From Candidatus Kerfeldbacteria bacterium (GTDB lineage Bacteria > Patescibacteriota > Patescibacteriia > UBA9570 > XYC2-FULL-38-9), in assembly GCA_016182555.1 (NCBI GenBank), contig JACPGJ010000007.1, positions 128,053 to 192,052 of the forward strand: a stretch of 64,000 nt of DNA, written 5' to 3'. Under the pieces are notes generated by a model. The model made no database searches. It was not told where the DNA came from and saw only the letters and a program-made list of their open reading frames with translations. The translations under genes were made by a program, and so were the position numbers. How positions within the stretch are numbered: position 1 is the stretch's first letter; every line of letters starts with the position of its first letter. This document shows positions 21,688-41,968 of this stretch, one piece after another.

Positions 21688-23016
21688 TTATCTATCCAAA
21701 CCAAGTTGGGTAATGGCTTGACGCAAGCTTTTTGCTGTTTTTGGAGAAATAACACTCGACAACCCAAACCGCTTTGCTTCTTTTGTTCGATCTTTCTCCC
21801 GTGCTACTGAGCGAACTTCTCCACCCAGGCCAACCTCTCCCCAGCAAATCGTTTCTGTTGAAACAGCAATATTGCGAAGTGCAGAGACCAATGCTGCGCA
21901 AATTGCCAAATCCATCGCGGGCTCACGAAAAGCACTCCCGCCAACAATATTCAAATATACATCATGCTGTTCAAAGGAACAATCCGCTCGTTGCCCCAAT
22001 ACCGCCAACAATAGATTCAAACGATTCACATCAAAACCAGATGCTTTACGTTGCGGAAACCCAAAACTGGTTTTGGACACCAATGCTTGCACTTCCACCA
22101 AAAAAATACGACTCCCCTCCATCACCGCGGTTAAACACGAACCGGCAACCGCTGATCGCTCTTGCACAAATACCTGCGACGGATCTTGCACTTCTTGCAA
22201 ACCCCGCGCTTGCATATCAAACACCCCCACTTCGTTCGTTGCGCCGAAACGATTTTTCACCGCACGTAATAAACGAAATTGGTGGTGTCGTTCTCCTTCC
22301 AAATACAACACCGTATCAACAATATGTTCCAATGTCTTTGGTCCACCCAACTCCCCGCCTTTGGTCACATGGCCGATAATAATAATCGGAATATTGGTGC
22401 TTTTCGCCACTTCTAAAAAACGCACCGTCGAAGCCTTAATTTGATTAACGCTCCCCGGTTCACTTTCTACACTCGATGACGCCACGGTTTGAATAGAATC
22501 AATAATAACCAACGCCGGTTTGGTTTCCAAAATCGTTTTACAAATGACCTCTACATGTTCTTCACTCACAAACAATAATTGCTGTTGCGCTATACCTAAC
22601 CGGTCAAGGCGTAATTTAATTTGCTGCGCAGATTCTTCGCCAGATACATAGAGCACAGATGCTTGTACACTGCCAGCGATTTGGGCAACAAGGGTAGACT
22701 TACCAATGCCGGGGTCACCGCCAAGAAGAATCAACGAACCAGGGACAATACCACCACCAAGTACGCGATCACATTCGCCAATGCCCGTACTGACTCGTGC
22801 AACAGCGCCTTCTGTTATTTCAGAAAAGCGCAACGGTTTGACTGCAGCAACCGCACCAAGGTTATATGCGCGCTGCTGTTTTGCTGTAGCGGGTAGGTCA
22901 GCGGTACGTTGTTCCAAGGTTCCCCACTTGCCGCATTCTTCGCACCTCCCCGACCATTTCGGAAATTGGGCGTCGCAATTGCTGCAGCTAAAAATAATTT
23001 TTGGTGTTGCACTCAT
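21688..23016 (-). CDS. radA: DNA repair protein RadA/Sms
   Basis: C4 zinc finger (CSNCDAQFPKWSGRCEECGKW). RecA-like Walker A (GGDPGIGKSTL). KNRFG motif (AVKNRFGATNEVGVFDM). Lon-protease-like C-terminal domain. The ORF track start at 23070 would overlap the upstream gene; the internal Met at 23016 is more likely. Confidence 0.9.
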   Translation of the reverse strand: MSATPKIIFSCSNCDAQFPKWSGRCEECGKWGTLEQRTADLPATAKQQRAYNLGAVAAVKPLRFSEITEGAVARVSTGIGECDRVLGGGIVPGSLILLGGDPGIGKSTLVAQIAGSVQASVLYVSGEESAQQIKLRLDRLGIAQQQLLFVSEEHVEVICKTILETKPALVIIDSIQTVASSSVESEPGSVNQIKASTVRFLEVAKSTNIPIIIIGHVTKGGELGGPKTLEHIVDTVLYLEGERHHQFRLLRAVKNRFGATNEVGVFDMQARGLQEVQDPSQVFVQERSAVAGSCLTAVMEGSRIFLVEVQALVSKTSFGFPQRKASGFDVNRLNLLLAVLGQRADCSFEQHDVYLNIVGGSAFREPAMDLAICAALVSALRNIAVSTETICWGEVGLGGEVRSVAREKDRTKEAKRFGLSSVISPKTAKSLRQAITQLGLDR

Positions 23017-23020
23017 AAAC

Positions 23021-24085
23021 CTAATAGGTCGTATCAACAACACTTCCTCCACAACTACAACCAGAAACATCTAATCCTGGGCAAACTCCACACACAGATG
23101 TACTACCCGTATAACCAAAATGATGATCTTCGGTAATATGATTATGCTTGCTGGTTGATGGATTAAAATCTGGGTTATAGTTCAATACCTTCCAACCATA
23201 ACTGTTTGCTCCAATAACATTATATCCAGAAGTAGATTTATTCGTTACAACACAACCACCTTCATTACCACATGCCAGCCAATTATATTGAGCAATGGAG
23301 AGTGAACTGATATTCAAATCAACCGCACCTCCAGAAATATGCCCTTGATCACTACAATCCGGATCAGAAGGATGATCGCCAATACTATTGTCATGTAAAC
23401 ACTGCTGGTAACTAAACGAACGAAACATGTGGTTGGCGGGTATCTTCTTATTAAACTTTGCGTAAAATGTTGCCGCCATTAAATTCCAAGATCCCGCCGC
23501 ATTTGGTGCCAATTTGTGTACTGCCTTGGTAAGCATTTTTTGTGTGTATCGCGAGTCTACCGTAACCAAACCAGTGCACGTGGCATCATCCACGGTATTT
23601 GGACACACCCCTTTCGTATCGGTTGGTAACGGTGGTGCTTCAGATGCTTCAAAATCTTCTACTGGTGGCGTATTGGGTTTTGGAACAACAATGCTAGATA
23701 AGTCGGTCAATTTTGGATTCAAGGTATGCAAAATAAGGTAAGAACTCAATGCAAGCACTAACCCAGCCAAAGCGCTTGTTATTCCATCTTTGGCTTTAGT
23801 AATCGTGCCAGAATTTCCAGCTGCCGCCGCCCAGCGTAAACCATTATACATAATCATTACCGTGGCAAGAATAGCCACCGCACCAACAGCAAATTGATAG
23901 AGCGCTCCCATATAGTCCGCCAAATTGGTGGCAATAATTTTTGAACCAATACCAATTTCTAACTGAACAGGCGGGTTTGTTTGCGCAAATACTACTGCTG
24001 GGAACAAGACAAGAAGCGTCGCAAGAAAAAATTTATTTTTGTGCGTGGTCAATTTCATCTTGAACAATTTTTTTAATGTCATCAT
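23021..24085 (-). CDS. secreted/membrane protein fusing a VirB2/TrbC-pilin-like hydrophobic hairpin to a Cys-rich LAS/M15-type zinc peptidase-like domain
   Basis: 354 aa. Signal peptide (..LVLFPAVVFAQ). Two hydrophobic helices separated by a short polar loop (LYQFAVGAVAILATVMIMYNGL - RWAAAAGNSGTITKAKDG - ITSALAGLVLALSSYLILHTL). Then a domain with a peptidase M15-like SxHxxGxAxD pattern (SDQGHISGGAVDL) and a downstream ExxH (ITEDHHFGY), plus many Cys. Confidence 0.4.
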   Translation of the reverse strand: MMTLKKLFKMKLTTHKNKFFLATLLVLFPAVVFAQTNPPVQLEIGIGSKIIATNLADYMGALYQFAVGAVAILATVMIMYNGLRWAAAAGNSGTITKAKDGITSALAGLVLALSSYLILHTLNPKLTDLSSIVVPKPNTPPVEDFEASEAPPLPTDTKGVCPNTVDDATCTGLVTVDSRYTQKMLTKAVHKLAPNAAGSWNLMAATFYAKFNKKIPANHMFRSFSYQQCLHDNSIGDHPSDPDCSDQGHISGGAVDLNISSLSIAQYNWLACGNEGGCVVTNKSTSGYNVIGANSYGWKVLNYNPDFNPSTSKHNHITEDHHFGYTGSTSVCGVCPGLDVSGCSCGGSVVDTTY

Positions 24086-24782
24086 ACGTTTGAATCCCGC
24101 TGACTATTCTATTATTAATGTAATACGTCGGTGCTTCATCAACATCGAGTGATTTAGCAATGAAATATCCTTGCACGATCATCGATTTTTTTGCGGTATC
24201 CGAGAGACAGGTCGTAAATATATCCGTATCCAACCCTAAGTCGCCCGCCATAGTCACCCACGGACCCAGCACAAATTGAGATTGTTTCTGAAGCAACACA
24301 TCATGATACTGCCAAAATGCTCCCTGGTCTTGTGCACAACGCGCTGCCACAGCAGCATCTTCAGCGTATGGATGGACATTCGGTAAAGGAAAATCTTTCC
24401 ACACATGCAATACATCGCTCGGGTACTCAGCCACAATTTGCGCAATAACGCCGCTCATGGCTGCACAATTCTGACATTCAAAATCACCGAATTCAATAAT
24501 CGTGACTGTCGGTTTTGTCGCACCACGTTGTGGGTCAGTCACAAGTGGGTGTGGTTTTCCTCCTAATATTTCTTTGGGGACAACCGTCACCAATGGATCC
24601 ACTGATCGCGCAATAGTAGAATTATATAAACCTGAGTCATCTTTATGGCGCGCTTTTTCAACGCGCGCATTGATAATTTGTTGTATCACGCCCATCAATA
24701 CAATAGCAGCAACAAAAACGATAACCGAAAAGGTCATGAATAATGTTGATCGATGTTTTGGTTGAATAGGCATAATGCGCAA
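24033..24782 (-). CDS. membrane-anchored thioredoxin-fold DsbA-like thiol-disulfide oxidoreductase (CxxC = CQNC)
   Basis: 249 aa. N-terminal TM helix. FGDFECQNCAAM active-site-like motif. DsbA-like length and layout. Confidence 0.55.
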   Translation of the reverse strand: MRIMPIQPKHRSTLFMTFSVIVFVAAIVLMGVIQQIINARVEKARHKDDSGLYNSTIARSVDPLVTVVPKEILGGKPHPLVTDPQRGATKPTVTIIEFGDFECQNCAAMSGVIAQIVAEYPSDVLHVWKDFPLPNVHPYAEDAAVAARCAQDQGAFWQYHDVLLQKQSQFVLGPWVTMAGDLGLDTDIFTTCLSDTAKKSMIVQGYFIAKSLDVDEAPTYYINNRIVSGIQTYDDIKKIVQDEIDHAQK

Positions 24783-26033
24783 TTATGGTAAGTCAATTTT
24801 CACTAACTTTCCACTCTTTTTATCACGGAAATAGAGCGTGGAACCGTCCTTTCCAACAAAAATGTCATCCACCGTATATGCCGGGTTTCCCTGGTCATCC
24901 ACCGGTACGGCAATACGCTCTTTTAAACCCGTATTGAGATCAACACGATAAATATCATCTGTGGTTCCATCCAAAACATCTGGTTCAATACCCGAACCGA
25001 ACTTCTGCTCTGATGGCACACCACAGTACACAACGGTGCTCGTTGAATTAAATGCGCACTTATCCGGTGAGGTATGTAATTGGAGTTCTTCTCTATTTTT
25101 CCCAATATCATCTCCATTCGCATCTACTAACCACAACGATGGCTGATAACCCGTTGACGCAGAGTACACACTATACAACAGTTGTTGGCCATTGGGTGAG
25201 TATTCGGTTTTGAGACCACGCCCATCTACCACAGCGCCTTTGAAATTTTCTCCATGCAAACCGATAAATGTGAGCTCTTGGTCCGAGCCATTCACAAATT
25301 CTGAATACGTCGCCACCACATTTCCCGTCGGTGACCAGTCGACATTCACTTTATCACCATTTTGCCCAAGTGACTCCAACGTACGAATGCTGGAACCATC
25401 TGGGTTTGCCACTCCCAACGCCCGCCGCTCTTCTTCCTCGGCCATATATTTAAAAGCAATCTGGCTCGAGTTTGGAGAAAAATCAAAATCTTCAAATTCT
25501 TTCGGTAATGTCACTTGACGTTTCGTATCTAAATGATAATACACATTGGAACCATCGGGGAATTCTAAAATCACTTCATTACTGGTATCAGACCAGGTCA
25601 CATGATCAACATAAGGAAATTGCGCTTCAGCAATTTGAACAATATCGCCATTGTCATTGACAGAATAAAATTTTCCATCATCTGGGTTGTAATACCGAAT
25701 ACTTCCACTGCTACTTGGCGCCGGATTCTGCGCCTCTGAATTGGGTGTTAATACATCTGTTTCGGTTAAACCACCGTTGGCCACAGGGCTCACGCCAGGC
25801 AACCCTCCGCCACCACCGTCATTGGTATTACCGCCACCATTGATATTACCGAGTGGTTCATTCACATTGGGTAAAGCACCATTTGTATTATTCACGTTTT
25901 CATTGCCGCCTGGTGTCGTGCCTGGGGTACCACGAAAAAAAACAATATACAGCAAATAGCCTAAACCAACAGCAATGATCAACAGGATCACTGCGTAGAA
26001 AATACGTTTATTTCGCTCAGATTGTATAGGCAT
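24783..26033 (-). CDS. membrane-anchored TolB-like beta-propeller protein
   Basis: 416 aa. N-terminal TM helix. Gly/Asn-rich linker. Repeated TolB-type blades (YNPDDGKFYSV, WSDTSNEVILEF, FSPNSSQIAFKY, WSPTGNVVATYS, YSPNGQQLLYSV). Confidence 0.5.
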   Translation of the reverse strand: MPIQSERNKRIFYAVILLIIAVGLGYLLYIVFFRGTPGTTPGGNENVNNTNGALPNVNEPLGNINGGGNTNDGGGGGLPGVSPVANGGLTETDVLTPNSEAQNPAPSSSGSIRYYNPDDGKFYSVNDNGDIVQIAEAQFPYVDHVTWSDTSNEVILEFPDGSNVYYHLDTKRQVTLPKEFEDFDFSPNSSQIAFKYMAEEEERRALGVANPDGSSIRTLESLGQNGDKVNVDWSPTGNVVATYSEFVNGSDQELTFIGLHGENFKGAVVDGRGLKTEYSPNGQQLLYSVYSASTGYQPSLWLVDANGDDIGKNREELQLHTSPDKCAFNSTSTVVYCGVPSEQKFGSGIEPDVLDGTTDDIYRVDLNTGLKERIAVPVDDQGNPAYTVDDIFVGKDGSTLYFRDKKSGKLVKIDLP

Positions 26034-26069
26034 AGAATGAATATATTATACCATATATAGAAAATAATT

Positions 26070-27221
26070 TCATAGCACGCTCCCACTGACAAATAATGAA
26101 TAGAGAACTTTTAAGGTGTCGAAATTCAGTAATAAGGCTGGGCTCAATGTCATAAAGAGCATCACCAAAAGAATGATAAAGCCAATCATTAAAATACCAA
26201 ATATAATAATGATGATAAGACCAATGACAATTCCACGAAGCATGGGCGACCGAGCCAACAATGTCAGTACAACCTTCCACGGACCCGGGGGTGCGAGCTT
26301 GGCTGCACGAGAGAGCAATGCTTCTAAGCCACCACCGGAGCCACGTTGACCTTGCTGTTCTTGGCTTGCATCTTCCTCATCTTCTGTTTCTTCGTTATTC
26401 TCCTCTTCATCTTCATCTTCGCCTTGTTCCGTTTGTTCTTGGCGGCGTTGTCTTAATAACTCCGCTTGACGGGCTCCTTCCTCTTCACTGTTTTTCGCAT
26501 CAGCACCGTCATCTTTTTCTGGTGAAGTATCATCTTCTGTATCTTGTCGTGATCCTTCTGCTGCACCGGCAGACGCTTCTTCATCTTGCTCGTCTTGTTC
26601 ATCTGCATCATTAAATTCGTTATCATCATCGTCATCTTCTTCGTTCAATTCATCTTCTGCTTCTTCGTCATCATTATCATCTTCATCTTCGCCTGGCCAC
26701 TGTTTCAGTTGTTCAAATCCATCAACAATTTCACGAACACGCGCAGCTGGAGATTGCCCTCGAAGTTTCGGATTCTGCGCAACAGCCACATTCTCCCCTT
26801 CTTTCTGGCGTTCTGCACGCAACGCGGCTGGTGTGTTGGGTTTTGGCGAAATAGTTTGCTTATCCGAATCATCATCCGCATTATCAGAACTATCATCAAT
26901 TGAAGCATGTTGTAGACGAGTCATATCTGCAGCCTGAGCTGCCTCTGCATCCGAAATATCTGTCGGTGTTTGGGCAATGCGTTGTCCAAAACTAGCAATG
27001 TCTGGATAAGAACGATCTAATTGTTGAATCGCTTTCTGTGCAGCCGCAGAAGGATTTCCCGTTCGTTGTTGAAGCATTCGGGCATAACGCGCTGCTGCCT
27101 GCTGTTGCGGGGTAGACGTCGTGGTAGTATTCAGCAATCCTAACGCCTCATTCAATGTTTTGGTCATTGAACGTTTAATCCGTTGCCGTGTCTGTTGTTG
27201 GTTGGAAGGAGTAAGCGCCAT
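26070..27221 (-). CDS. highly acidic (Asp/Glu-rich) protein with a C-terminal hydrophobic membrane anchor, T4SS-cluster-associated
   Basis: 383 aa. Long DE-rich low-complexity middle section. C-terminal TM segments (IVIGLIIIIIFGILMIGFIILLVMLFMTL). Confidence 0.4.
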   Translation of the reverse strand: MALTPSNQQQTRQRIKRSMTKTLNEALGLLNTTTTSTPQQQAAARYARMLQQRTGNPSAAAQKAIQQLDRSYPDIASFGQRIAQTPTDISDAEAAQAADMTRLQHASIDDSSDNADDDSDKQTISPKPNTPAALRAERQKEGENVAVAQNPKLRGQSPAARVREIVDGFEQLKQWPGEDEDDNDDEEAEDELNEEDDDDDNEFNDADEQDEQDEEASAGAAEGSRQDTEDDTSPEKDDGADAKNSEEEGARQAELLRQRRQEQTEQGEDEDEEENNEETEDEEDASQEQQGQRGSGGGLEALLSRAAKLAPPGPWKVVLTLLARSPMLRGIVIGLIIIIIFGILMIGFIILLVMLFMTLSPALLLNFDTLKVLYSLFVSGSVL

Positions 27222-27223
27222 AA

Positions 27224-27556
27224 TTATCCAAAAATCTTTTTTCGCAACACACCATCGTCATGCAGATACTGGTCCTGAAACAATTGTCGCTGACGCTCCG
27301 CTTCGGTCGCGCTACATTCTCCGCGTTCTTCTTGCCAATCAATACGATAGAGTAACAGTGCATATAACGCCATCATCGCTGCGAGCACCGCTTCTCCCGC
27401 TTCCTCTATTTTGGTTTGTGGTGCTAGAGTATTCGCCACCTGTTGTAATTGTTCGGTCTTCTCACGCAACGCTGCCCGTACACGCTCTATCTCTTGGTCA
27501 ATAGCAACACCAGAATCCAACGATGCATGTTGATGTTCAATAACAAGATTATCCAT
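27224..27556 (-). CDS. small coiled-coil hypothetical protein, T4SS-cluster-associated
   Basis: 110 aa, helical. Tightly packed between neighbours on the same strand. Confidence 0.35.
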   Translation of the reverse strand: MDNLVIEHQHASLDSGVAIDQEIERVRAALREKTEQLQQVANTLAPQTKIEEAGEAVLAAMMALYALLLYRIDWQEERGECSATEAERQRQLFQDQYLHDDGVLRKKIFG

Positions 27557-28177
27557 TTATTGCCAGGTGATATTATCCACTTTCCAATTCCCGTTGACAT
27601 ACAAAAAATCGACCAATGCGTACTGCGTAAACGCACGCGGATCTTCATTTGTTTTCGTCTCTACACGCCGAGTGCCCACACGTGCAGTGGCGGATTCTTT
27701 AGCCGTATAAGCTGTTAATTCAACTGAATTAGCGGTCGTGGAAATACCGTAATAGTCTTCTGGAATACCATCGGTGTGGTTTTTTTCAATAAACGCGAGG
27801 GATTCTTGCTGGAACTCTTCGGTCATAAATGGTTCCAGGCGAGTAATATTTTCATAATTATTCCGGTTCGAAAAGCTGCCATAACGTTCTACAACAATAC
27901 GCGCCAAACGCATTACCAGTTCTTCTTGTGTCGTCTGTGCCGTTGTGTCCGTATTCGTATTGTCGCCACCGGTGTTGGTATTTGTTCCATCACCGCCCGT
28001 GCCACTATTCACATTTGGTAAAGCATTATTCGTATTCTGCTGTTCATTCGTGTTCTGAGTGTTCGTATTATTATCGTCTGTTGAGGAACGCCGAGCAAAC
28101 AATATACCGGCAACGATTAAGCCAACAACAGCCAGCGCACAGAAAACCAGAATGATGATTTTAAGAGATTTTTGCAT
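27557..28177 (-). CDS. bitopic membrane protein with a C-terminal NTF2-like domain, candidate VirB8-like component
   Basis: 206 aa. N-terminal TM helix (IIILVFCALAVVGLIVAGILFA). Asn/Thr-rich linker. ~120-aa C-terminal domain of VirB8-like size and topology. Assignment is by architecture and position next to VirB4. Confidence 0.35.
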   Translation of the reverse strand: MQKSLKIIILVFCALAVVGLIVAGILFARRSSTDDNNTNTQNTNEQQNTNNALPNVNSGTGGDGTNTNTGGDNTNTDTTAQTTQEELVMRLARIVVERYGSFSNRNNYENITRLEPFMTEEFQQESLAFIEKNHTDGIPEDYYGISTTANSVELTAYTAKESATARVGTRRVETKTNEDPRAFTQYALVDFLYVNGNWKVDNITWQ

Positions 28178-28198
28178 ACATGCTATCTATTATCGCAA

Positions 28199-30109
28199 TT
28201 ATTGTTGATTGTTTTGTTCTTCAAATTCTTTTTTACTCTGTTCCAACTCCAGTAACTGGCGTGGATCAGAAGTAATAATTTTATCTTCAACTGGAGAAGC
28301 CACTACTTGCATCGCCACATGTTTTGGACCAGCAAAGAAAATCCCCTGACCAACAGCACCTTCAAGTAATAAATATTTTTCTCCGTCGGTTAAAATAAAT
28401 GTTTTCTGAATCCGGTCAATAGAAGCGGGTGATTGTTTCAACAAAATTTGCATGGCAGAGTTGGTCACAATCGCTGCACCATAAGGTGAACGTAAAAAAT
28501 CGGCCACATCTTGGGTAATGGTAGTGACACCAAGGTAATACTTACGACAGCGTTTAACCAACGCATAAATAAATTTGGCAGAATCATCATTTTGCATCAA
28601 CCACCAAGCTTCGTCGATAACTAAAATTCGTTTTTTCAGTTCTGAACGAATCGTATTCCAAATATAATTCACAATCATGTAAATGGCGATCGGTTTCAAT
28701 TCGTCTTCTAAATCACGAACGGAAAATACCATCAGCTGATTAGTGGTATCGATATTCGTAGGCGAATTGAATAACCCGGCGAATGTACCAGTGACATATT
28801 TTTGTAACTTAATCACCATTTCTTCCGTGCCTTCAAACCCTTCCAAAATACTCAAGAAATCGGTCATGAGCGGCGGTTCAATGTTATGCAAGTCACTATC
28901 GGGTGTAATATCTTTTTTGGCGTAAGTTTCAATAAGCGCGCGATCCAGAATAGAATCTTCTGCGGCGCTGACTTTGCCCAACATAATACGCAGCATGCCT
29001 TTAATGGTAATCACTGCGGAACGAATAATATCCGCTGGGCGGTCTGCTCCACCAACGGGTTTTGGTAAATCAAACGGGTTAATTTTCACTTCGGAATTCA
29101 ACGAAATATTCATAAACGTTCCACCCACCGAATCAGATAAATGCTTATATTCATTTTCCGGGTCGATAATCATCACGTCCACGCCCAACATGAGTGAACG
29201 CAATACCTCTAACTTGACTGTATAACTTTTCCCGGCACCCGATGTGGCAAATACCACGGCATTGGCATTTTGCAAACTAAAACGATCAAACACAATCAAG
29301 CTACCGTTGTGGCGGTTCACGCCGTACATAATGCCATCGTCAGAAGTAAGATCCGAAGAAATAAATGGGAACGACGACGCGCACGGCGAAGAATTCATAT
29401 TAAAGAAAATCTCTAATTCATCCAAACCAATCGGCAGCGTGGAATTAAACCCTTGTTCGGCTTGATAATACACCCGTTTTGCCACCACCAACCGCGAACC
29501 AAACAAACTATCGAGTTGGTCTACACGGTCACTCAATTCTTTTTCATTGTCGGCATACACCGATACATAAAGCGCGTATTGAAAAAATTTCTCTGTTCCT
29601 TGGGTCAAGTCATCGCGCAGTTTTTCAATATCGCGCAGGGCTGTTTCTCGCAGCGGGTCACGCGGCGCTCCTTTTTCACGGTCAGAAAATAATTGCGCTT
29701 CCAGGGCACCCACTTTATTCTTCAACTGCTTCAAAATCACCTCTGCTTTTACCGGATAGAAAAACATACTAATATCTAATGCCGCATTCAGCAAAATAAT
29801 CGGTGCAAACCAACCCACGGCAATATACCGTGGATAGGTGACCACAAATAATGTACTCACCAATTTCCCACCCAAATCGACATGGCGCGCTTCCACGCTC
29901 ATTGCCGATGGTGCAATTAAATCCAGTACCGAAGTGACACCCTTGCGGTACACTTGTGCAGCCTGCAAAACGGACACTTCTTCTTTTTGTTGCTGGGCAG
30001 CAGGTAGCGGTGCGCTACTCGCTTGCGATTGCTGCTTCACCAATTCCTGAAAACTAAATTCGGGTGCTTTCGATTGTTGTGATGAACGATTTTTTAAAAA
30101 ATTAAACAT
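28199..30109 (-). CDS. virB4: type IV secretion system ATPase, VirB4/TraC/CagE family (ATPase portion plus the preceding core region)
   Basis: 636 aa. Gram-positive VirB4-type region (LIAPSAMSVEARHVDLGGKLVSTLFVVTYPRYIAVGWFAPIILLNAALDISMFFYPV). Walker A (FATSGAGKSYTV). Walker B (RILVIDEAWWLM). Confidence 0.8.
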   Translation of the reverse strand: MFNFLKNRSSQQSKAPEFSFQELVKQQSQASSAPLPAAQQQKEEVSVLQAAQVYRKGVTSVLDLIAPSAMSVEARHVDLGGKLVSTLFVVTYPRYIAVGWFAPIILLNAALDISMFFYPVKAEVILKQLKNKVGALEAQLFSDREKGAPRDPLRETALRDIEKLRDDLTQGTEKFFQYALYVSVYADNEKELSDRVDQLDSLFGSRLVVAKRVYYQAEQGFNSTLPIGLDELEIFFNMNSSPCASSFPFISSDLTSDDGIMYGVNRHNGSLIVFDRFSLQNANAVVFATSGAGKSYTVKLEVLRSLMLGVDVMIIDPENEYKHLSDSVGGTFMNISLNSEVKINPFDLPKPVGGADRPADIIRSAVITIKGMLRIMLGKVSAAEDSILDRALIETYAKKDITPDSDLHNIEPPLMTDFLSILEGFEGTEEMVIKLQKYVTGTFAGLFNSPTNIDTTNQLMVFSVRDLEDELKPIAIYMIVNYIWNTIRSELKKRILVIDEAWWLMQNDDSAKFIYALVKRCRKYYLGVTTITQDVADFLRSPYGAAIVTNSAMQILLKQSPASIDRIQKTFILTDGEKYLLLEGAVGQGIFFAGPKHVAMQVVASPVEDKIITSDPRQLLELEQSKKEFEEQNNQQ

Positions 30110-30114
30110 AGTGA

Positions 30115-30846
30115 TTACTGAATAGAGGTATCAATTTGCATCTGCGTCATATCTTCTATCCGACGTTTCTGTTTGGTGACCGGATTATAGGTATTATAAT
30201 ACAACTCAATCAATGCTTGTGTGTCCAAAATTTGTGTTTGCAAACTAATCGATTGTAATCCACTAATGACCACACTCAAACGACGCGCCATTTCTACTTT
30301 ATATTGTGCTAATTGGTCTTCATGGAGCTTCACAATGCTCGCCGGTGAAATAGTTTCCTGCAACCGCGACCAAAAATTTTTCTTTTTATTCGATGTCGGT
30401 GAAAATGGCACTATCACATAAAATTTCTTATCCATAATATCAGCTTCTTCCACTAATTTACTCACGAATGAACGATAAGAAAGCGTTTGTTTGCGCAACA
30501 GCTCATTCTCGTGCTGCCGCGCGAGGAGTTGCAACTTATCTAAATATTTTTCAATGTTGAGCTTTCTGGATTGAATCACCACTTGCAATGGAAAATCAAT
30601 GGTATTTAAAAACGATACATACCCTTGAATAATAGCGGTTTGCTCATCTTCAGATTTCAATGCAAAATTCAAACTCGAGACAAGAATAACTGTCCGCAGT
30701 GTTCCATCTTTCATAATCACAATGTCATCACGAATTTCGGCAAATGGCAGATGCTGCTGTGCAGATGGGAGCTGGCCGTTTTTTTTCTTCACCTGGCGAA
30801 CCGGCCGTTTTTTAATTTGTTTGATTGGTTTATTTTTTTTGCTCAT
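30115..30846 (-). CDS. T4SS-associated protein resembling the extreme N-terminal segment of Gram-positive VirB4 ATPases (possible split virB4, 5' part)
   Basis: 243 aa. Lys-rich N-terminus, then DDIVIMKDGTLRTVILVSSLNFALKSEDEQTAIIQGYVSFLNTIDFPLQVVIQSRKLNIEKYL, a pattern I associate with VirB4 N-termini. TAA stop at 30115-30117, 5 nt before the ATG of the VirB4 ORF, in a different frame. Confidence 0.45.
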   Translation of the reverse strand: MSKKNKPIKQIKKRPVRQVKKKNGQLPSAQQHLPFAEIRDDIVIMKDGTLRTVILVSSLNFALKSEDEQTAIIQGYVSFLNTIDFPLQVVIQSRKLNIEKYLDKLQLLARQHENELLRKQTLSYRSFVSKLVEEADIMDKKFYVIVPFSPTSNKKKNFWSRLQETISPASIVKLHEDQLAQYKVEMARRLSVVISGLQSISLQTQILDTQALIELYYNTYNPVTKQKRRIEDMTQMQIDTSIQ

Positions 30847-30862
30847 ACCTCAACAAATGAAA

Positions 30863-31390
30863 TTAACGTTGCAACAAATTACTCCCTCCGACCGGAGCCG
30901 ATGATGCAGATGCTCCCCCGCCTCCTCCACTCGCCACAACTTTACTGGTTTTTGGTACGTTCTTCCCGGCACGCAATACATCTTCTGTTGCATACATTCC
31001 TCCGGTATCCACCATCAACGACATCGCTGCTAAATGCGATTGCGTAACCTCTTTCTGAATCGACTGCGCTTGCGTTGAGACAGCTGGTGTTGTTGCTTGC
31101 TGTTCTGAATAGGGAATGCGCGCCCAAAGTTTCAACCGTGGTCGGCGTAATGTTTGTACTAAATTTAATACGACATAGTGCATAGATTGCCCATTCACTT
31201 TTGCAAATGCCATTCCCCCGCCAATCATCACCGTTAACACCAGTGCCGGAATAAATAATACCAAAGATAAAATAGAATACCACAAAAATGCCACACCCAG
31301 AGTAATCAAAATAATCACAAATTGACGAGCAGAAATCGGACCAATAATTTTGGATTCAACTTCGATAAATTGTGGTACAACAAATTGCAT
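30863..31390 (-). CDS. small two-TM protein, candidate VirB3/PrgI-like T4SS component
   Basis: 175 aa. Two adjacent TM helices (FVIILITLGVAFLWYSILSLVLFIPALVLTVMIGGGMAF). Located directly upstream of the VirB4-type genes, as VirB3 is in canonical clusters. Confidence 0.4.
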   Translation of the reverse strand: MQFVVPQFIEVESKIIGPISARQFVIILITLGVAFLWYSILSLVLFIPALVLTVMIGGGMAFAKVNGQSMHYVVLNLVQTLRRPRLKLWARIPYSEQQATTPAVSTQAQSIQKEVTQSHLAAMSLMVDTGGMYATEDVLRAGKNVPKTSKVVASGGGGGASASSAPVGGSNLLQR

Positions 31391-31411
31391 ATCGTACGTG
31401 TAGTGTAGCAG

Positions 31412-33403
31412 TTAATAACGAAGCTGGCGATTCAAATCGGAGATGGCATCAAATTCCGCTTGCATGAGCGTGTCTTTTCCGCTTTGCGCCCATTGACGAA
31501 TAATCTCTTCCACTGGCACTGTTTTTTCTAAACTTTCTTTTCCAATAGATAAATACAGTTGGTGCAGTGGACTCGCAAACCACGCTTGCATGCCTTCCGC
31601 TTTTTTCGATAACGATTCTTCTTCCAGTAAAGCCAGTTTATCAATAATATGTTTGGCGGCGTCTTGTGGTTGTTCAGCAAGGCGGCGGAAATCTTCCAGA
31701 TTCATATTTTGTAATTCTTCGAGTGGACCCATCACCACTGGCTGTGCGGCTTCTTGACTGTCATGCGAAAAAGATGCCCCCGATTGTGCTGCAGCAAATT
31801 GTCCCGGATGAACAATATCGGTCATGATTGATTTTTTATTTGTGTTATTCATATCCATTGTATCAAAAATAGGGTTCATATTGGCGAACATATCTTCGAC
31901 CATAATATGAGCACTTGCTTGTTCCTCCGCACGCTTGGCATCATGTTTTTTTTGACGGTCAATCTGTTCTTGCACCATGGCAAGAGTGGGGGCAAATATG
32001 TTTGAAGGTTGCGTTGTCTTCACCCGTTTAGTTTCTTTGCCGCCCTGCAAGGCTTGTTGATACAATTCATCAGCCGTGTGCAAAATGGTATCTACTTGTG
32101 CAGCGGGAATATTCACTCCCCCTTCTTGTGAAGGCCGGGTCAATGCATCGCGTGCCTCTGGTTTGCTGCGCACTCCCCGCAAATACGACACGACAATACT
32201 CAAAAACCGTTTTTCTAATTCCAGCGATTCAAATAACAATTTGTATTCACCTAACACATGTTGGGCGACCGTATGATATTGGTGATCGCTCAACAATAAT
32301 GGAGATTCAGCAACATCAGTAACAGCGGGGGTAGACACAACTGGCAGTGGAGGCACAGGCATTGGTGGGAGTGGTTGGGGTGTTGGAAGCTGAGGCAATG
32401 GGAGTGGCGAAGCTGGCGGCTGCACTGTTTTCTTTGGTGGAGGGGGGAGCGGCATCGGTGGCAGTGGAGGCACAGGAGCAACAGTCTTTTCTTCTCCAAT
32501 AACCACTGGTTGGGCATACATTTTTACCGCTTTCTTTACTTGTTTGGAAATAGGAAGCGGTTTGCCGTGGTCGTCTAACCCCGCCAAAAAACGCATAGCC
32601 TTTAACTCCGGCTCTGGTATGGGAACATGGGTATCTTCGACCACCCCCATATCAAAAAGATGCACCGTTCCGGTGACCGGGTCATCAAAATAAAACGTCG
32701 ATTCAGAACCTTCCGGTGTTTTAGAGGAGAGTGATAATTTATGGTCAAACTTTAACAAATGTTCAATGCGTTCTTTATCATCAGCGGACAGGGCTTGTAC
32801 ATTTTTACTGGAATTCATGTACTCCACAATCAACAACGGTTCTGGTTTACGGGTCGCTAAAAATTCTTTCCAATCGTGAAGCCAGCTGGCGATACTTGGT
32901 TCCACTGTCGTTGTCCCAATGGTGATATCTGTTTTACCAATATGTGCAGTCGACCGTGACAATGCTTCACGATATTTCTGCTTTACCACATCACGCTCAC
33001 CATAATCATCAATAATCAACAACCGACGTTTCAATTTGCGCAAAATCTCTTCGAAGTCTTTTTTAAATAGCCCTTCTCCATGGCGTGAAAGAACATTTTC
33101 CACTTCCGTTGGCGCTAAATCACCAATCACAAACCATTTCGCTTCGGCCATCACCGTTTCTAATTCTGCATAGAGACCCGGTTGTTGTTTGTCTAGCTCC
33201 GGATACTTCGTGCTGATAAGCTTTTGAATACTATTCACCAAATGAAATACTGTATCATTATCGTTATCGTCCAACGCCGTATTCAAAGCATGAATGGCTT
33301 TATTGATTCCATCTGGTGTATTCAATTCAAAAGATTCCAGTGGTCGGGCAATGGGTGGTACGGCTGGTGCTGTTGGCATATTTTTTTGTATTGGTGTATC
33401 CAT
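31412..33403 (-). CDS. T4SS-cluster hypothetical protein with a central proline-rich tract
   Basis: 663 aa. No clear TM helix. Pro-rich region (PPLPPMPLPPPPKKTVQPPASPLPLPQLPTPQPLPPMPVPPLPV). Confidence 0.4.
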   Translation of the reverse strand: MDTPIQKNMPTAPAVPPIARPLESFELNTPDGINKAIHALNTALDDNDNDTVFHLVNSIQKLISTKYPELDKQQPGLYAELETVMAEAKWFVIGDLAPTEVENVLSRHGEGLFKKDFEEILRKLKRRLLIIDDYGERDVVKQKYREALSRSTAHIGKTDITIGTTTVEPSIASWLHDWKEFLATRKPEPLLIVEYMNSSKNVQALSADDKERIEHLLKFDHKLSLSSKTPEGSESTFYFDDPVTGTVHLFDMGVVEDTHVPIPEPELKAMRFLAGLDDHGKPLPISKQVKKAVKMYAQPVVIGEEKTVAPVPPLPPMPLPPPPKKTVQPPASPLPLPQLPTPQPLPPMPVPPLPVVSTPAVTDVAESPLLLSDHQYHTVAQHVLGEYKLLFESLELEKRFLSIVVSYLRGVRSKPEARDALTRPSQEGGVNIPAAQVDTILHTADELYQQALQGGKETKRVKTTQPSNIFAPTLAMVQEQIDRQKKHDAKRAEEQASAHIMVEDMFANMNPIFDTMDMNNTNKKSIMTDIVHPGQFAAAQSGASFSHDSQEAAQPVVMGPLEELQNMNLEDFRRLAEQPQDAAKHIIDKLALLEEESLSKKAEGMQAWFASPLHQLYLSIGKESLEKTVPVEEIIRQWAQSGKDTLMQAEFDAISDLNRQLRY

Positions 33404-33446
33404 AGGTTCAATGGCGCATGTAAATTATGGTTGTTGTCTACGGCGT

Positions 33447-36400
33447 TTATTCCTCGTCACTTATAATATTATTTTTTTTGTTTTTATTGGATTGAGTGAA
33501 GACTCCATCACGTACCGCGCGAATAAATTCTTCCGGTACACCTAAATTTTTTAAATTCTCTGGATCGGATGCATCGCTATGTTTAGCAATATAGTCACGA
33601 ATACGCTGACGCGTTAATTCTTTCAACCACCGGAAACCCGTTTCGTAGGAATAATCGTGGCCGTAGCGAATCAATTTCTGAATATCGCTTGGAGCGAGTG
33701 TTGTATCATTACCTTCTACGACACCAAAAACGGTATTGGCCACATTGCTTGCCTGCCGCCTGTTAATACCACCAGCTTGTAGAGCCGCCCGTTCATCCTT
33801 CCCGCGCGGACGCATCACTCCAGCAGCGTTTGAAACGTATGCCGCATCCAAATCAATATTGTCGTCAGTAAATTTTGCCACTAACTTCTGCATATAACGC
33901 ATAGATTCTTGATCACTCATTCCTAACTCCTCCTTTAAATGGTGGGTACGGAATGCTTCCATGGCGCCGTGTCCGGACCCTGCATGCGCGCGGGCATCTG
34001 CATTATCACTTTGACGCAAATACTGGTCAAAACCGAACCATAATAACCCGCCCGTTTCTTGCAAGCGTTTGTGCACCGCTTCGGCCAAATATCGATTTTT
34101 TTCTTTTTTGGCACGAGTTAAATAACCCATCAATTCTGTACCATCATCAATATTCTGCACTTGCTGGTACTGTTCATCTACCAATTTTTTGTGTTCAGGG
34201 TTACTCGTGTGTCGGCGTGCTTCCAATGTTGCAGACTCAGCCGTTGCGGCAACCAGTTGGCGTTCGCGTTCTGATAATTCATTATCTAAAATACTTCCTG
34301 CATTGTCGAAGAAATCAGCCGTTGCCGGATCAATAACATGCACGTCATGTTGATCATCATTACGTCGAACATACTCGTTTTTCACTTTATTCAATGAGCT
34401 ATTTAATGCTCCTGTTAAACCTAAACGTAGTGCCCCTGGCGCATAGGAGCCATGTTGCTTAAATAATTTTTTAGAATTAATACTTCCCTCACGCAACGCC
34501 TGTTGCACACGTTCAATTTGAGCTTGAAGAGCCGTCTTATCCTCCGGGGTAGTCGCTGCGGCTAAATCTGTTTTCAATTGTGCAATAAGATCTTGAATAA
34601 ACCGACGAACTGGCTCAATAGTCGTATCCAATCTGGTATCTGCGTCTGACATGACACCAGATCGCATATTTAATAAACTCCTTGTGTGCTCATCTTGTGA
34701 ACGATAATTTTTATTATAATCTTCCAAACGTTTCTTTTGATCATAGAGCCCCTCATCCAACTTATACATATCTGCTCCAAAACGGCGCTCTAACTCTGCA
34801 TCAATATCCGCCTCTGAAGGGGGTGGTGTTCCTGCTCTTTGCGCTGCAGCAGTTAATTCTGCGGCGAGTTCTGGTCTGGCTTTCTGTTTATTTTTTCTAA
34901 TCTTTCTTCTCATCAAAAGACCAAAAGAATTTTCTGCTTTATCGGCTAACCGTTTATATGTTCGTAGACTTAATGGATCATAATCTTCATATACCTTTAC
35001 GGCATCATCAGATGTCACCCCAATGCCAATGCCGGTCAAATTATCCATACTGGCAAATGCACCGTTCATATAGCCATGGCCCATAATATCACGATCCGCC
35101 ATCCCTCTCGCCCTCTTCTTAGATTCATTCAAAAAGACTTCCTGTTTTCGTTCGCTGGCTTTAGAAACGCCCGTTTTCAAATTCTTCCACGCTTTGCCAG
35201 GGTCGGAAAGCACGGTATTGGTAAAATGAGAAAAGTTATCGAGTGGTTGTAACACGTTGGAAGCAAATCGCGATGCACCACGTGCTCTAGCGGAACGATC
35301 GTCATCACTGGCAATGGCATCCAGCCGGCCACGGGCGCTTGACAATGCACGACCAGCCAGATATTGCTGATTGAGACGATAGCTGGCTTGACGAGCTGCA
35401 CCCAATAACTTCCCCGCTCCTTGGCGCACTTGGCTAAGCTGTTTCGTAAATTCTGTGGCCATCTCGTTCACCATTTTCAAAGACGCGGCTAACATCAACA
35501 TCATGACAATGTAATTCACAATGGTGGCCGGCGTTACGGCCCGCAACTGGCCGGTTTCTGGTGATTTCGAATACGTAGCAGGTAGCTGGGTTTGCACCTT
35601 TTCGTCAAACGCTCCATTTAAGGGTGACCCATTGTACCCATACGCCGTATCGGCCTGTGTGCCATACGCAATAGAAAGAGACAACCATAAGAAAAATGTA
35701 ATGAGGGGGCCAACGATGACATAACGCCCAAACATATCCCACCATTTTTGCGCAATACGGCTTTGGGTTTGGGGTAAAATGCGCCCAATCCAGGCAAGCG
35801 GAGAAATGGATATGAGAAACCAGAGCATGACGATGCGGAAAATGAGCGTCACCACATAGACCGTAAGAATAATGGAAAGCCCGGTTAACATGAAACCCGC
35901 AGCGGCAAAACCAGCAATCAAAAACGGTAACCCCTTAAGATCACTAACTACGGAATCTGAATCTCCTAAAGATAAATCCAATATTGATGCCGGGTTCAAA
36001 ACACCCAAAATATTTCGCCCAATCGCATTGCTAAACGAGCCGCCAAACGTGGCCATGGCAACTGTCGCCGCATCGGTGAATACGCCACAAATCGTACGGG
36101 AAAAATTGATTAAAATAGCCGCAATAATAAAATCAGGTAGCGTTTTTTTCCACGAATATTTTTCAATACGCAACACCGTACCTAAAGCGATGATGATAAG
36201 AATCATGGAGAAAAAAATGTTGCAAACATCACGCACCAGCTTCCATGACGTTACGACACCGGGGACATTCACAAATGCGGAGCGCGCATCTGCGCCGATG
36301 AATACGGATTGCCAGACATCGCCGTAGGGGTAGGTAATAACAATATCTAAAATAAAAGCGAGAATCATAGCAATAATCCCATTGATCATAATGGGAACAT

Positions 36401-36671
36401 AGTAAATAAATGCAAGAATCACGCGTGCCACTGAACCAATAATGCCGCTTGACTGCGCATATACCACCGGCACTCCGTTAAACGACATGATTATACCGGC
36501 AATACTGAGGCCAACGATACACACCCCGCCCCAATAAGCGGTTTTTTTGAAAATTCTGCGTGTTTTTTGTTGAGAGAGATAAAAAAATACCCGTACTTTT
36601 GGAAAATACTGGACTGTTTTGCTGCCTATCGTGCGGCAAAAATTGATAATACGCTGGTAAAACCGATTCAT
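33447..36671 (-). CDS. VirB6/TrbL-like polytopic T4SS channel protein with a large C-terminal coiled-coil domain
   Basis: 1074 aa. First ~400 aa contain at least 7 TM helices in a TrbL/VirB6-like arrangement. About 650 aa of charged, helical, TM-free sequence follows. Resembles Gram-positive PrgH/TcpH-type VirB6 proteins. Confidence 0.5.
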   Translation of the reverse strand: MNRFYQRIINFCRTIGSKTVQYFPKVRVFFYLSQQKTRRIFKKTAYWGGVCIVGLSIAGIIMSFNGVPVVYAQSSGIIGSVARVILAFIYYVPIMINGIIAMILAFILDIVITYPYGDVWQSVFIGADARSAFVNVPGVVTSWKLVRDVCNIFFSMILIIIALGTVLRIEKYSWKKTLPDFIIAAILINFSRTICGVFTDAATVAMATFGGSFSNAIGRNILGVLNPASILDLSLGDSDSVVSDLKGLPFLIAGFAAAGFMLTGLSIILTVYVVTLIFRIVMLWFLISISPLAWIGRILPQTQSRIAQKWWDMFGRYVIVGPLITFFLWLSLSIAYGTQADTAYGYNGSPLNGAFDEKVQTQLPATYSKSPETGQLRAVTPATIVNYIVMMLMLAASLKMVNEMATEFTKQLSQVRQGAGKLLGAARQASYRLNQQYLAGRALSSARGRLDAIASDDDRSARARGASRFASNVLQPLDNFSHFTNTVLSDPGKAWKNLKTGVSKASERKQEVFLNESKKRARGMADRDIMGHGYMNGAFASMDNLTGIGIGVTSDDAVKVYEDYDPLSLRTYKRLADKAENSFGLLMRRKIRKNKQKARPELAAELTAAAQRAGTPPPSEADIDAELERRFGADMYKLDEGLYDQKKRLEDYNKNYRSQDEHTRSLLNMRSGVMSDADTRLDTTIEPVRRFIQDLIAQLKTDLAAATTPEDKTALQAQIERVQQALREGSINSKKLFKQHGSYAPGALRLGLTGALNSSLNKVKNEYVRRNDDQHDVHVIDPATADFFDNAGSILDNELSERERQLVAATAESATLEARRHTSNPEHKKLVDEQYQQVQNIDDGTELMGYLTRAKKEKNRYLAEAVHKRLQETGGLLWFGFDQYLRQSDNADARAHAGSGHGAMEAFRTHHLKEELGMSDQESMRYMQKLVAKFTDDNIDLDAAYVSNAAGVMRPRGKDERAALQAGGINRRQASNVANTVFGVVEGNDTTLAPSDIQKLIRYGHDYSYETGFRWLKELTRQRIRDYIAKHSDASDPENLKNLGVPEEFIRAVRDGVFTQSNKNKKNNIISDEE

Positions 36672-36728: not shown

Positions 36729-36737
36729 ATTATATCA
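36729..36737 (-). promoter_or_regulatory. extended -10 promoter (TGnTATAAT) upstream of the VirB6-like operon
   Basis: Minus strand reads TGATATAAT, about 55 nt upstream of the ATG at 36671. No convincing -35. Confidence 0.3.
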
Positions 36738-36792
36738 TATTCTTGAGTTTTTTGCCACATCAGATTTGGGGAAACCTGTTTAAATGATGTAT

Positions 36793-36830
36793 TTTTGACA
36801 TATTTGGAAGGGTGTGCACAACACATGCGC
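36793..36830 (+). repeat. copy A of a conserved ~40-nt element (TTTTTGRCATATTTGGARGGGYGTGCACARCAMATRC) with an internal TGTGCACA palindrome
   Basis: tttttgacatatttggaagggtgtgcacaacacatgcgc. Aligns almost base-for-base with copies at 41149 and 41927, all in the same orientation. Confidence 0.7.
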
Positions 36831-37003
36831 AAAAATGGAAAACATGGAAAACCACCATGCAGTTGACAGCAAAAACAGTCTTAAGTATTATTATCGTAGA
36901 AGCATGCAGTAACAACTTACGGGACACCCTTAGTGTTCCCTTGGCCTTGCTGAGGCTTAAGCTGAGGATACATGTGGCCTGTAAGACGCTGCTTCAATAA
37001 AAT

Positions 37004-37033
37004 ACTCAATCCAGAACGGTTGAGTTTTTTGTT
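37004..37033 (+). terminator. weak candidate rho-independent terminator (plus-strand orientation)
   Basis: ACTCAA-tccagaacgg-TTGAGT followed by TTTTTTGTTT. Only a 6-bp stem with a 10-nt loop. Confidence 0.25.
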
Positions 37034-37047: not shown

Positions 37048-37692
37048 CTATAAAAAAAGCTGCTTTCCTTTCACTATTTTATTCTGCAAAATAGCATAAA
37101 ATTCTTTGCCGAGCGATTTATTGTTCACATACGCTGCTAACGCACCGGTAATCCAATCGGCGATTTGTATATTCACGTGTTGATCAGATTCGAGCATCTT
37201 CACAGCAATACGTGATCCGAGCGGTATACGTGAAAGTATTCTCGCATAAATAAATTTACAAAATTCTTGCTGATGCATATCTTTTAAATGACGTTTGTCA
37301 CAATAAATGTAGAGTTCTTTTGTTTCTATAGGAAAATATAAATCGATATTTTGCGTCACGATTTCCGCATAAAGATATCCACTTTTCAGCTGTCGTTTAT
37401 ACCAAAATTCCTGTGGGATATCTTTGTGAGAAACAATGGTATAGCAAATACGAATATCTAAATCCGCAATGTGCTGTATAGTTTTTAATCGTAATTTTTG
37501 ACTAATCTCACAATCATTGAACTTGATCTCCATTTTATAACGTCTATTTATTGGAAAATGTTTGCGTTGCCATGTATGAAAACTTTTGGCGGTTTGTTTT
37601 GGATTTGTTGTCGAAAAAGAACCAATAACAAAATATGGCTGTTGGGGATTTTTTGTTAATTGACCACTTTCATCTAAAAATATTGCGTACAT
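37048..37692 (-). CDS. DUF3800 family protein
   Basis: 214 aa. N-terminus MYAIFLDESGQL matches the Y-x-DESG start characteristic of DUF3800 (RNase H-like fold) proteins. Lies within an AT-rich segment. Confidence 0.55.
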   Translation of the reverse strand: MYAIFLDESGQLTKNPQQPYFVIGSFSTTNPKQTAKSFHTWQRKHFPINRRYKMEIKFNDCEISQKLRLKTIQHIADLDIRICYTIVSHKDIPQEFWYKRQLKSGYLYAEIVTQNIDLYFPIETKELYIYCDKRHLKDMHQQEFCKFIYARILSRIPLGSRIAVKMLESDQHVNIQIADWITGALAAYVNNKSLGKEFYAILQNKIVKGKQLFL

Positions 37693-41926: not shown

Positions 41927-41968
41927 TTTTTGGCATATTTGGAGGGGCGTGCACAGCACATGCACGGA
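41927..41968 (+). repeat. copy C of the conserved ~40-nt element
   Basis: tttttggcatatttggaggggcgtgcacagcacatgcacgga, followed by agcttgac. About 200 nt upstream of the Asp/Cys-repeat gene. Confidence 0.7.

Follow-up and report, generated by a model that had tools for sequence, protein, structure and literature searches.

A probable Patescibacteria-type, non-conjugative type IV secretion system, with a predicted pilin-peptidase fusion, in a Candidatus Kerfeldbacteria chromosome

In a 64,000-nucleotide stretch of a Candidatus Kerfeldbacteria genome (contig JACPGJ010000007.1, positions 128,053 to 192,052; hereafter the window), an unbroken series of minus-strand open reading frames (ORFs) at 23021-36671 recalls the type IV secretion systems (T4SS). 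Does this cluster belong to a conjugative element or to a machine of another kind, and in which direction could it transport? The series comprises 11 genes with inter-ORF gaps of 0-43 nt and two overlaps, encoding, in transcription order, proteins of 1074, 663, 175, 243, 636, 206, 110, 383, 416, 249, and 354 aa. A preliminary description of this DNA, made from its letters alone, had recognised the uninterrupted co-directional run, in agreement with the ORF map, but had counted thirteen genes; no gap is big enough for a further gene, let alone for two. The same description took the cluster not for a conjugative element but for a T4SS-like machine in reduced, non-conjugative form, belonging to an epibiont with a small genome. 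This view holds: the ATPase is a VirB4, the window yielded neither relaxase nor type IV coupling protein (T4CP), a 100% identical VirB4 places the host among Kerfeldbacteria metagenome-assembled genomes (MAGs), and a matching system has been published. The cluster is thus very probably a chromosomal, non-conjugative, Patescibacteria-type T4SS at the cell envelope/host interface. Its arrangement is that of class ABY1/Kerfeldbacteria, derived from monoderm (Gram-positive, MPF_FATA) conjugation machinery.

The VirB4 ATPase core is encoded by the 636-aa ORF (28199-30109; this and all other genes of the operon are on the minus strand). It matches NF045971, the model of VirB4-like conjugal transfer ATPases of the CD1110 family, with 340 bits (cut-off 325) over profile positions 177-733, as well as the Pfam families P-loop_TraG, AAA_10, and DUF87; further VirB4 and TraC models of NCBIfam also match. 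Both nucleotide-binding motifs are intact (Walker A, ATSGAGKS; Walker B, ILVIDE). An FtsK/HerA-type identity of this ATPase, which had been put forward as incompatible with the T4SS reading, was rejected because the curated VirB4 cut-off is passed. The weak NCBIfam matches to CedB/CedD reflect only the ATPase core shared by VirB4 and HerA-like proteins. All named homologues among the best 120 are from Kerfeldbacteria, Patescibacteria or Parcubacteria (68-100% identity). These names, and the fact that CD1110 is the best curated model, are consistent with a place of this VirB4 in the Patescibacteria clade nested in MPF_FATA.

The 243-aa ORF (30115-30846) is TrsD-like. Its NCBIfam matches, all under the curated cut-offs, are VirB4_plasma (E 1.3e-8), TrsD (E 8.1e-6), and positions 2-191 of the CD1110 VirB4 model (E 9.2e-6). 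Since this stretch precedes that covered by the 636-aa ORF in one and the same model, both ORFs are predicted to constitute a single VirB4 in two pieces, a detached TrsD-like N-terminal segment and a core. Therefore, the preliminary description was right in relating both ORFs to VirB4, but they correspond to one split protein (the TrsD + VirB4 arrangement) and not to two. A scan of one genome per species provided 80 related loci, all from MAGs, in which VirB4 identity is 62-84% in almost all cases and 44-46% in two, and the TrsD-like segment is, it seems, generally detached.

The membrane translocon set is complete: an extended VirB6, PrgI/VirB3, a VirB8-like protein, and the split VirB4, which is the only ATPase found. 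The 175-aa protein (30863-31390) belongs to the PrgI family, the VirB3 equivalent (PF12666, 35.5 bits, cut-off 27), and has two transmembrane (TM) segments at residues 19-37 and 40-58, in line with its previous description as a VirB3-like two-TM protein. The 206-aa protein (27557-28177) had been proposed to be a VirB8-like NTF2 protein in need of structure prediction. An AlphaFold2 model based on 23 homologues opens with an N-terminal TM helix, from which a disordered linker leads to an NTF2-like domain at residues 77-206, with a predicted local distance difference test score (pLDDT) mostly above 90. The best PDB matches of this domain in Foldseek are CagV, a VirB8 homologue (1.6e-4), and the VirB8 domain of PrgL from pCF10 (3.9e-4), and others are the R388 T4SS stalk-arches-inner-membrane-complex (8rtd_Y), TcpC, and Brucella VirB8, so that the model supports the proposal. 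However, CaMKII hubs and further proteins of NTF2-like fold score about as well, and the VirB8 call hence rests on the fold together with the bitopic topology and the conserved place of the gene right after virB4.

The first gene of the operon (33447-36671) codes for a 1074-aa protein with about eight hydrophobic segments in residues 50-400, followed by a hydrophilic C-terminal region of about 650 aa. The window protein, previously described as VirB6/TrbL-like, has no Pfam or NCBIfam family match itself, but 11 of 49 orthologous N-terminal segments of 460 aa match PF04610 TrbL (best E 9.8e-6), the sole recurrent family, and a VirB6-like gene is found upstream of PrgI in 51 loci. Next comes a 663-aa protein (31412-33403) without TM segments or Pfam/NCBIfam matches, which is Pro-rich (8.9%), as had been noticed. 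Its C-terminal domain of about 110 aa (residues ~553-663) is kept immediately upstream of PrgI in 69 of the 80 loci. PDB profile searches with the families of these two proteins and with the VirB8-like family gave low-complexity or chance matches only.

The order VirB6-like, 663-aa family, PrgI, TrsD, VirB4, VirB8-like is kept in most of the 80 loci. Many of them are labelled Kerfeld-, Falkow-, Uhr-, Magasanik-, Buchananbacteria or "Patescibacteria group", and the labels of many others are generic or evidently wrong, for instance "uncultured Gammaproteobacteria". A comF gene directly follows the VirB8-like gene in 52 loci. The genes radA and recG are adjacent in those loci whose flanks extend that far, and in many of these a pilin gene lies beside radA. 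In most loci the radA-pilin-DsbA-propeller block is on the opposite strand, beyond comF and recG, whereas in Kerfeldbacteria (including this window) and a few others it is co-directional with the core. Conservation drops steeply, from 82-84% identity to the nearest relatives for VirB4 to 36-58% for the accessory proteins.

The chromosomal context was surveyed with Pfam on all window ORFs of at least 150 aa, on about 10 kb past the right edge, and on less than 1 kb past the left edge. In agreement with the preliminary description, no VirD4/TcpA-type T4CP, relaxase or VirB11 was found among these window ORFs or in the ~10 kb past the right edge, nor was an integrase. Instead, the window carries housekeeping genes (those for DnaG, ClpB, a ComF-like protein, RecG, RadA, KsgA, TsaD, and Sua5/TsaE), and the 10 kb past its right edge are also of housekeeping nature. 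The gene radA (21688-23070, minus strand; assigned by Pfam and gene spacing) is co-directional with the operon, abuts or overlaps the pilin gene, and is possibly co-transcribed with it; its neighbour recG is at 19641-21686, and the ComF-like gene (11923-12603) lies about 10 kb from the operon on the opposite strand. VirB11 had been listed among the parts lost by a reduced machine; it is indeed absent from the window, but this is not a reduction. To our knowledge, monoderm MPF_FATA-type systems have no VirB11, so that only the absence of T4CP and relaxase is informative.

The last gene of the operon (23021-24085) encodes a 354-aa protein in which the pilin-hairpin/peptidase fusion previously reported is borne out. 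The residues 55-119 match PF18895 (T4SS pilin) with 34.6 bits (cut-off 26.6), and three hydrophobic segments (19-37, 61-79, and 101-119) correspond to a VirB2-type leader and two helices. The N-terminal part is thus a putative VirB2-like T4SS pilin, for which assembly into a pilus is only predicted, and the C-terminal domain of about 235 aa that it carries is atypical for a major pilin. All 10 Cys residues are within the C-terminal 200 residues, and the peptidase domain spans about 200-330. A word-indexed homologue search returned three proteins, and the AlphaFold2 model built on this alignment was unusable (pLDDT 34.5). An exhaustive HMMER search with the C-terminal domain against 1.84 billion representatives returned 21 clusters, most of them of 310-376 aa with the domain at the C-terminus. 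The profile of these 21 members matches VanY-like, VanXYc, and LdcB M15B peptidases in the PDB (4mph, 9.2e-9; also 4mur, 4ox3, and 4ox5), with all catalytic motifs covered. R222, Q227, H249, G252, and D256 do not vary across the family and E319 and H322 hardly do, which is the signature of the LAS zinc site. Pfam detects VanY (PF02557) in 12 of the 21 members and T4SS_pilin in 15; the window sequence alone is below Pfam significance for VanY. The C-terminal domain is accordingly predicted to be a zinc-dependent M15B peptidoglycan carboxypeptidase or endopeptidase of VanY/LdcB type.

The syntenic pilin genes of relatives carry T4SS_pilin in 23 of 23 cases, and their identifiable C-terminal domains are Peptidase_M15_4, VanY, M23, SLT, SLT_3 or phage lysozyme, GDSL lipase, and C39-like. 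Paralogous pilin fusions, at least two per locus and differing in their C-terminal domains, were also seen (L064, 15516-16454 and 16938-17936; L003, 14119-15342); in L064, a 332-aa VanY-type fusion stands beside a 312-aa pilin fusion with another C-terminal domain. Such interchangeable pilin-borne enzymes, mostly cell-wall hydrolases, may be unreported, the accessible portion of the large survey by Quinonero-Coronel et al. 2025 (PMC12102498) containing no mention of fusions.

To the extracytoplasmic set belong, besides the pilin-peptidase, a DsbA-like oxidoreductase, a protein that may be a propeller, and a tail-anchored protein of acidic character. The 249-aa protein (24033-24782) is a membrane-anchored DsbA/thioredoxin-like oxidoreductase, as first described, with matches to PF13462 (Thioredoxin_4, 75 bits) and PF01323, a CQNC motif at residue 103, and an N-terminal TM segment. 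The 416-aa membrane-anchored protein (24783-26033) had been called a TolB-like propeller. Matches of this kind do exist (TIGR02800, E 0.0011; PDB TolB 7mx5, E 0.066), but both are sub-threshold, and the assignment as a TolB/PD40-like beta-propeller is weak; the gene is syntenic with those of DsbA and the pilin in 15 loci. The highly acidic character and tail anchor noted for the 383-aa protein (26070-27221) agree with its 20.9% of Asp plus Glu and its single, C-terminal TM segment (335-353). It has no Pfam or NCBIfam match and its sequence is not conserved; a like architecture is found at a like position in L002, L003, and L059. The gene at 27224-27556 encodes an acidic, lineage-specific 110-aa protein without TM segments or significant Pfam/NCBIfam matches, whose position is occupied in the Kerfeldbacteria relatives L001 and L003 by ORFs of 115-118 aa, also without TM segments (Asp plus Glu, 27.0% in L003 and 13.6% in L001). 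Hence both acidic proteins are recognisable in relatives by position and architecture only.

The system as such has already been published, according to the accessible parts of the sources, including its recG/radA/comF neighbourhood in ABY1 (Quinonero-Coronel 2025; Wang 2023). In their survey of 3035 genomes, Quinonero-Coronel et al. 2025 describe, in the portion of PMC12102498 available, a Patescibacteria VirB4 clade nested in MPF_FATA, with TrsD, PrgI, VirB6, and VirB2-like pilins near virB4, relaxases mostly absent, VirB8 detected almost only in ABY1, and comF, recG, and radA beside the T4SS in this class. Wang et al. 2023 (PMC10633639) showed S. epibionticum to require, for its epibiotic growth, a Gram-positive-like T4SS that has pilins but lacks a recognisable coupling protein or relaxase. 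A 2025 review regards the Patescibacteria systems as a new T4SS subgroup. The cluster resembles these systems (PMC12102498; S. epibionticum SEML1_0006-0019, PMC10633639) in being chromosomal, in having no relaxase or T4CP nearby, and in the presence of TrsD, PrgI/VirB3, VirB6, and a VirB2-like pilin around an MPF_FATA-related VirB4; with the ABY1 systems of PMC12102498 it shares the recG/radA/comF neighbourhood and a detectable VirB8. However, Saccharibacteria have an array of small pilins, whereas here one pilin gene, six genes downstream of virB4, is fused to a VanY-type peptidase. The co-directional propeller-DsbA-pilin-radA block in Kerfeldbacteria also departs from most ABY1. Pilin fusions, DsbA, and giant proteins are not mentioned in the accessible part of PMC12102498, and within the portions available of this paper and PMC10633639 the propeller, the DsbA, the pilin-hydrolase fusions, and the giant upstream gene treated below go unmentioned.

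Compared with Gram-positive MPF_FATA systems (PrgH-PrgI-PrgJ-PrgK-PrgL of pCF10, CD1110 of CTn2, TrsD/TrsE of pGO1), the cluster shares the order VirB6, VirB3, VirB4, VirB8 and the lack of VirB7, VirB9, VirB10, and VirB11. The TrsD-like piece recalls pGO1, the fold of the VirB8 domain matches PrgL of pCF10, and VirB4 passes the cut-off of the CD1110 (CTn2) model. In contrast to those systems, no relaxase, PcfC-like T4CP or PrgB-type adhesin was found here, a VirB2-like pilin absent there is present, in place of a PrgK/TraG-type protein there is a predicted wall hydrolase fused to the pilin, and the cluster is chromosomal and vertically inherited. The putative hydrolase resembles the VirB1 analogues PrgK and TraG (pIP501) as a membrane-tethered cell-wall hydrolase encoded in a T4SS operon, and its predicted R...Q, SxHxxGxAxD, and ExxH signature aligns with that of VanY/LdcB M15B carboxypeptidases (PDB 4mph, 4ox5, and 4mur). 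Unlike in PrgK/TraG, the putative anchor is a VirB2-type pilin hairpin (PF18895) and the enzyme would be of the M15B class, not SLT or CHAP. As in the Helicobacter pylori ComB and the archaeal Ced/Ted systems, VirB4, a VirB6-like protein, and a pilin occur without relaxase or T4CP, but no specific homology to Ced or ComB accessory proteins was found here.

The system probably extends past 23021-36671 to a giant gene on the same strand (43122-53906), and perhaps to radA on the other side. The giant gene encodes an acidic (Asp plus Glu, 15.9%), N-terminally anchored protein of 3594 aa with 118 Cys residues, a VWA domain, and Asp-rich repeats of calcium-binding type; it has no PDB or NCBIfam match. 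In 26 relatives a large ORF stands directly upstream of the VirB6-like gene, often overlapping it or less than 40 nt apart, and 20 of these 26 ORFs match the C-terminal part of the 3594-aa protein (E<1e-3). Matches below 1e-20 are found in L001, L003, L004, L035, L048, L060, and L064. The giant protein is therefore a probable T4SS-associated surface protein, and the gene of such a giant disulfide-rich surface protein is normally the first of the operon in the relatives examined. An Asp-rich 288-aa protein is encoded just upstream of the giant gene and overlapping it (53875-54741, minus strand). Right after the giant gene's stop codon, 43087-43121 contains a perfect 14-nt inverted repeat (AAAAATCACCCCGC / GCGGGGTGATTTTT), a putative hairpin with the look of a bidirectional terminator, situated between the giant gene and a convergent plus-strand gene at 42046-42933. 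The latter encodes a MopE-motif protein with three putative metal-binding motifs (PF11617, E 1e-28), and lies in a patch whose G+C content (0.56-0.59) exceeds the window mean by far.

Here, the giant gene and the T4SS operon are about 6.4 kb apart (36.7-43.1 kb). These 6.4 kb are mostly of low G+C content (0.33-0.40 at 36.8-41.9 kb) and contain a DUF3800 gene and a DUF3800-V RNA, a NYN-domain gene, genes of small membrane proteins, and the MopE-motif gene; the 36.8-41.9 kb segment also encodes a 357-aa secreted or anchored protein. Except for one NYN match, nothing equivalent to the intervening genes occurs in the loci of the relatives, and for this reason the low-GC segment was not counted as a part of the T4SS. 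It was probably inserted here, separating the giant gene from the operon, which would then use a promoter-like site of its own at 36758-36729. A 39-nt direct repeat occurs in three plus-strand copies (36792-36830, 41149-41187, and 41927-41965; 85-92% identity to the reference copy; none expected by chance) and nowhere else in the window, the outer copies bracketing the low-GC segment. For each copy, the distance to a plus-strand TTGAC(A) hexamer downstream is 6-33 nt, and the left copy is 34 nt upstream of the -35 of the operon; the repeat is a candidate att-like site or operator. The DUF3800-V RNA (36898-36996, plus strand; Rfam RF02964, 62 bits) has a strong promoter-like site of its own (TTGACA-17-TATTAT, 36863-36891) and a terminator-like hairpin (37004-37025), and is convergent with the DUF3800 gene (37048-37692, minus strand).

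The promoter-like site of the operon (GTGGCA-18 nt-TG-TATAAT, 36729-36758, minus strand) is a consensus match only (10/12), 58 nt upstream of the first gene, and a terminator-like hairpin is found just upstream of it (36860-36842, minus strand). An extended -10 promoter had been proposed at 36729-36737. The site is present on the minus strand, but such matches are no commoner than in shuffled sequence: across the operon there are 37 promoter-like sites vs. 31.2±5.6 and 23 terminator-like sites vs. 15.3±4.1 in shuffled sequence, neither clearly above expectation. The operon structure consequently rests on gene spacing and not on these signals. A second promoter-like site with an extended -10 (ATGAAA-17-TG-TATAAT, 26045-26073, minus strand) runs across the 36-nt gap and also takes in the start of the 383-aa gene; it is located just ahead of the propeller-DsbA-pilin-radA block, which in most relatives is a separate unit on the opposite strand. 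Elsewhere in the window, two large ORFs have no Pfam family (1468 aa at 55174-59580, plus strand, and 814 aa at 3996-6440, minus strand). A mechanically called ORF with a TTG start (16246-18093, plus strand), encoding a PMT-family glycosyltransferase, overlaps a tRNA-Ser (16326-16415), so that its true start must lie further downstream.

How could these components work together? With VirB4 as the sole source of power, a channel and/or pilus would be assembled where the cell touches its host. The DsbA-like protein would oxidise the Cys-rich exported parts, namely the peptidase domain of the pilin with its 10 Cys and the giant protein with its 118. The pilin-tethered M15 peptidase may take over from the wall hydrolase VirB1, which is missing, and act on the wall of the organism itself or of the host, and the giant VWA protein could serve as an adhesin. 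A bolder and decidedly tentative proposal is that the VirB2-like pilin of ABY1 is a modular carrier of a swappable extracellular enzyme, the pilus or tethered enzyme breaching the host's or the own envelope with the help of the giant Cys-rich VWA adhesin and a dedicated DsbA.

With regard to the direction of transport, the composition and neighbourhood of the cluster lead us to lean slightly towards import of host nucleic acids over export. ComB and Ced/Ted are T4CP-less import systems with VirB4, VirB6, and a pilin. An importer of their kind, which would draw in host DNA or RNA by a VirB2-like pilus or channel and leave it to ComF, RadA, and RecG to process the strands for recombination or nucleotide salvage, appears quite conceivable, though short of an even chance. 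The lean is due to the composition without T4CP and relaxase in the window, as in these importers, and to the persistent linkage with comF, recG, and radA, beside which the operon stays across ABY1 despite rearrangements (as also seen in the accessible part of PMC12102498); here radA abuts the last gene of the operon. Moreover, Patescibacteria do not synthesise nucleotides, and T4SS-based uptake has been proposed (PMC11665869; bioRxiv 2026 RNA-feeding paper). However, the synteny with housekeeping recombination genes may be a legacy of history without functional meaning, comF is here 10 kb off and on the other strand, no DNA-binding component was identified in the operon, and in S. epibionticum a comEC mutant is viable whereas the T4SS is essential (PMC12857230).

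A contact-dependent exporter or weapon, in which hydrolases or effectors would be delivered or presented to the host envelope, with the pilin-fused enzymes as payload and the giant protein as adhesin, is a doubtful possibility. Effector delivery has been speculated for Saccharibacteria (PMC11665869, PMC10633639). The interchangeable domains on the syntenic pilins, as polymorphic hydrolases, would fit export equally well, and a DsbA encoded in the operon, along with Cys-rich exported parts, is also in its favour. PrgK and TraG are housekeeping VirB1 analogues, and a tethered hydrolase is equally explained in this way; furthermore, there is no T4CP to recruit cytoplasmic substrates, and the pilin-fused domains, having a Sec-type leader, need no T4SS channel. 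A role in adhesion, or as a pilus only, takes up what import and export leave. Finally, an ordinary integrative conjugative element or its decaying remnant, with relaxase and T4CP outside the window, is very improbable and was rejected on composition, flanks, and vertical synteny: although VirB4 passes the cut-off of a conjugative-element model (CD1110 family) and T4CP genes are often distant from virB4, the G+C content of the cluster (0.42-0.45) equals that of its flanks and the rest of the window, its ends have no integrase or att repeats and adjoin housekeeping genes, its order and neighbourhood recur in numerous ABY1 genera (VirB4 identity, 62-84%), which indicates vertical inheritance, and relaxases occur in only 103 of 3035 Patescibacteria genomes (PMC12102498, accessible part).

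Several points count against a non-conjugative Patescibacteria-type T4SS as read here. About 74 kb of the 293-kb contig were covered and a T4CP could be encoded elsewhere; VirD4-like genes are far from virB4 in most Patescibacteria, according to the available part of PMC12102498. The VirB6 identity is drawn from orthologues and not from the window protein, and the propeller assignment is weak. The function of Patescibacterial T4SS has been called "completely unknown" (PMC11665869), the proposals in the literature being effector delivery and nucleic-acid uptake (PMC11665869; bioRxiv 2026 RNA-feeding paper), and here it is wholly inferred. The dispensability of comEC in S. epibionticum, as opposed to its T4SS, argues against a simple competence link (PMC12857230).

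The locus adds nothing to the basic T4SS catalogue, and its added value is modest, consisting of the split VirB4, the pilin-hydrolase fusions, and the linkage of the giant gene. Since epibiotic growth depends on a Patescibacterial T4SS, which is essential for it in the single species tested, every accessory component that recurs consistently offers a clue to the mechanism, and the conserved linkage with comF, radA, and recG has a bearing on the question of nucleic-acid import from the host by such machines. The pilin-hydrolase fusions may explain why VirB1 seems "missing" in published surveys. If the pilin were indeed a modular carrier, the ABY1 systems would represent a T4SS variant in which the functions of VirB1 and VirB2 are merged and diversified like polymorphic toxins.

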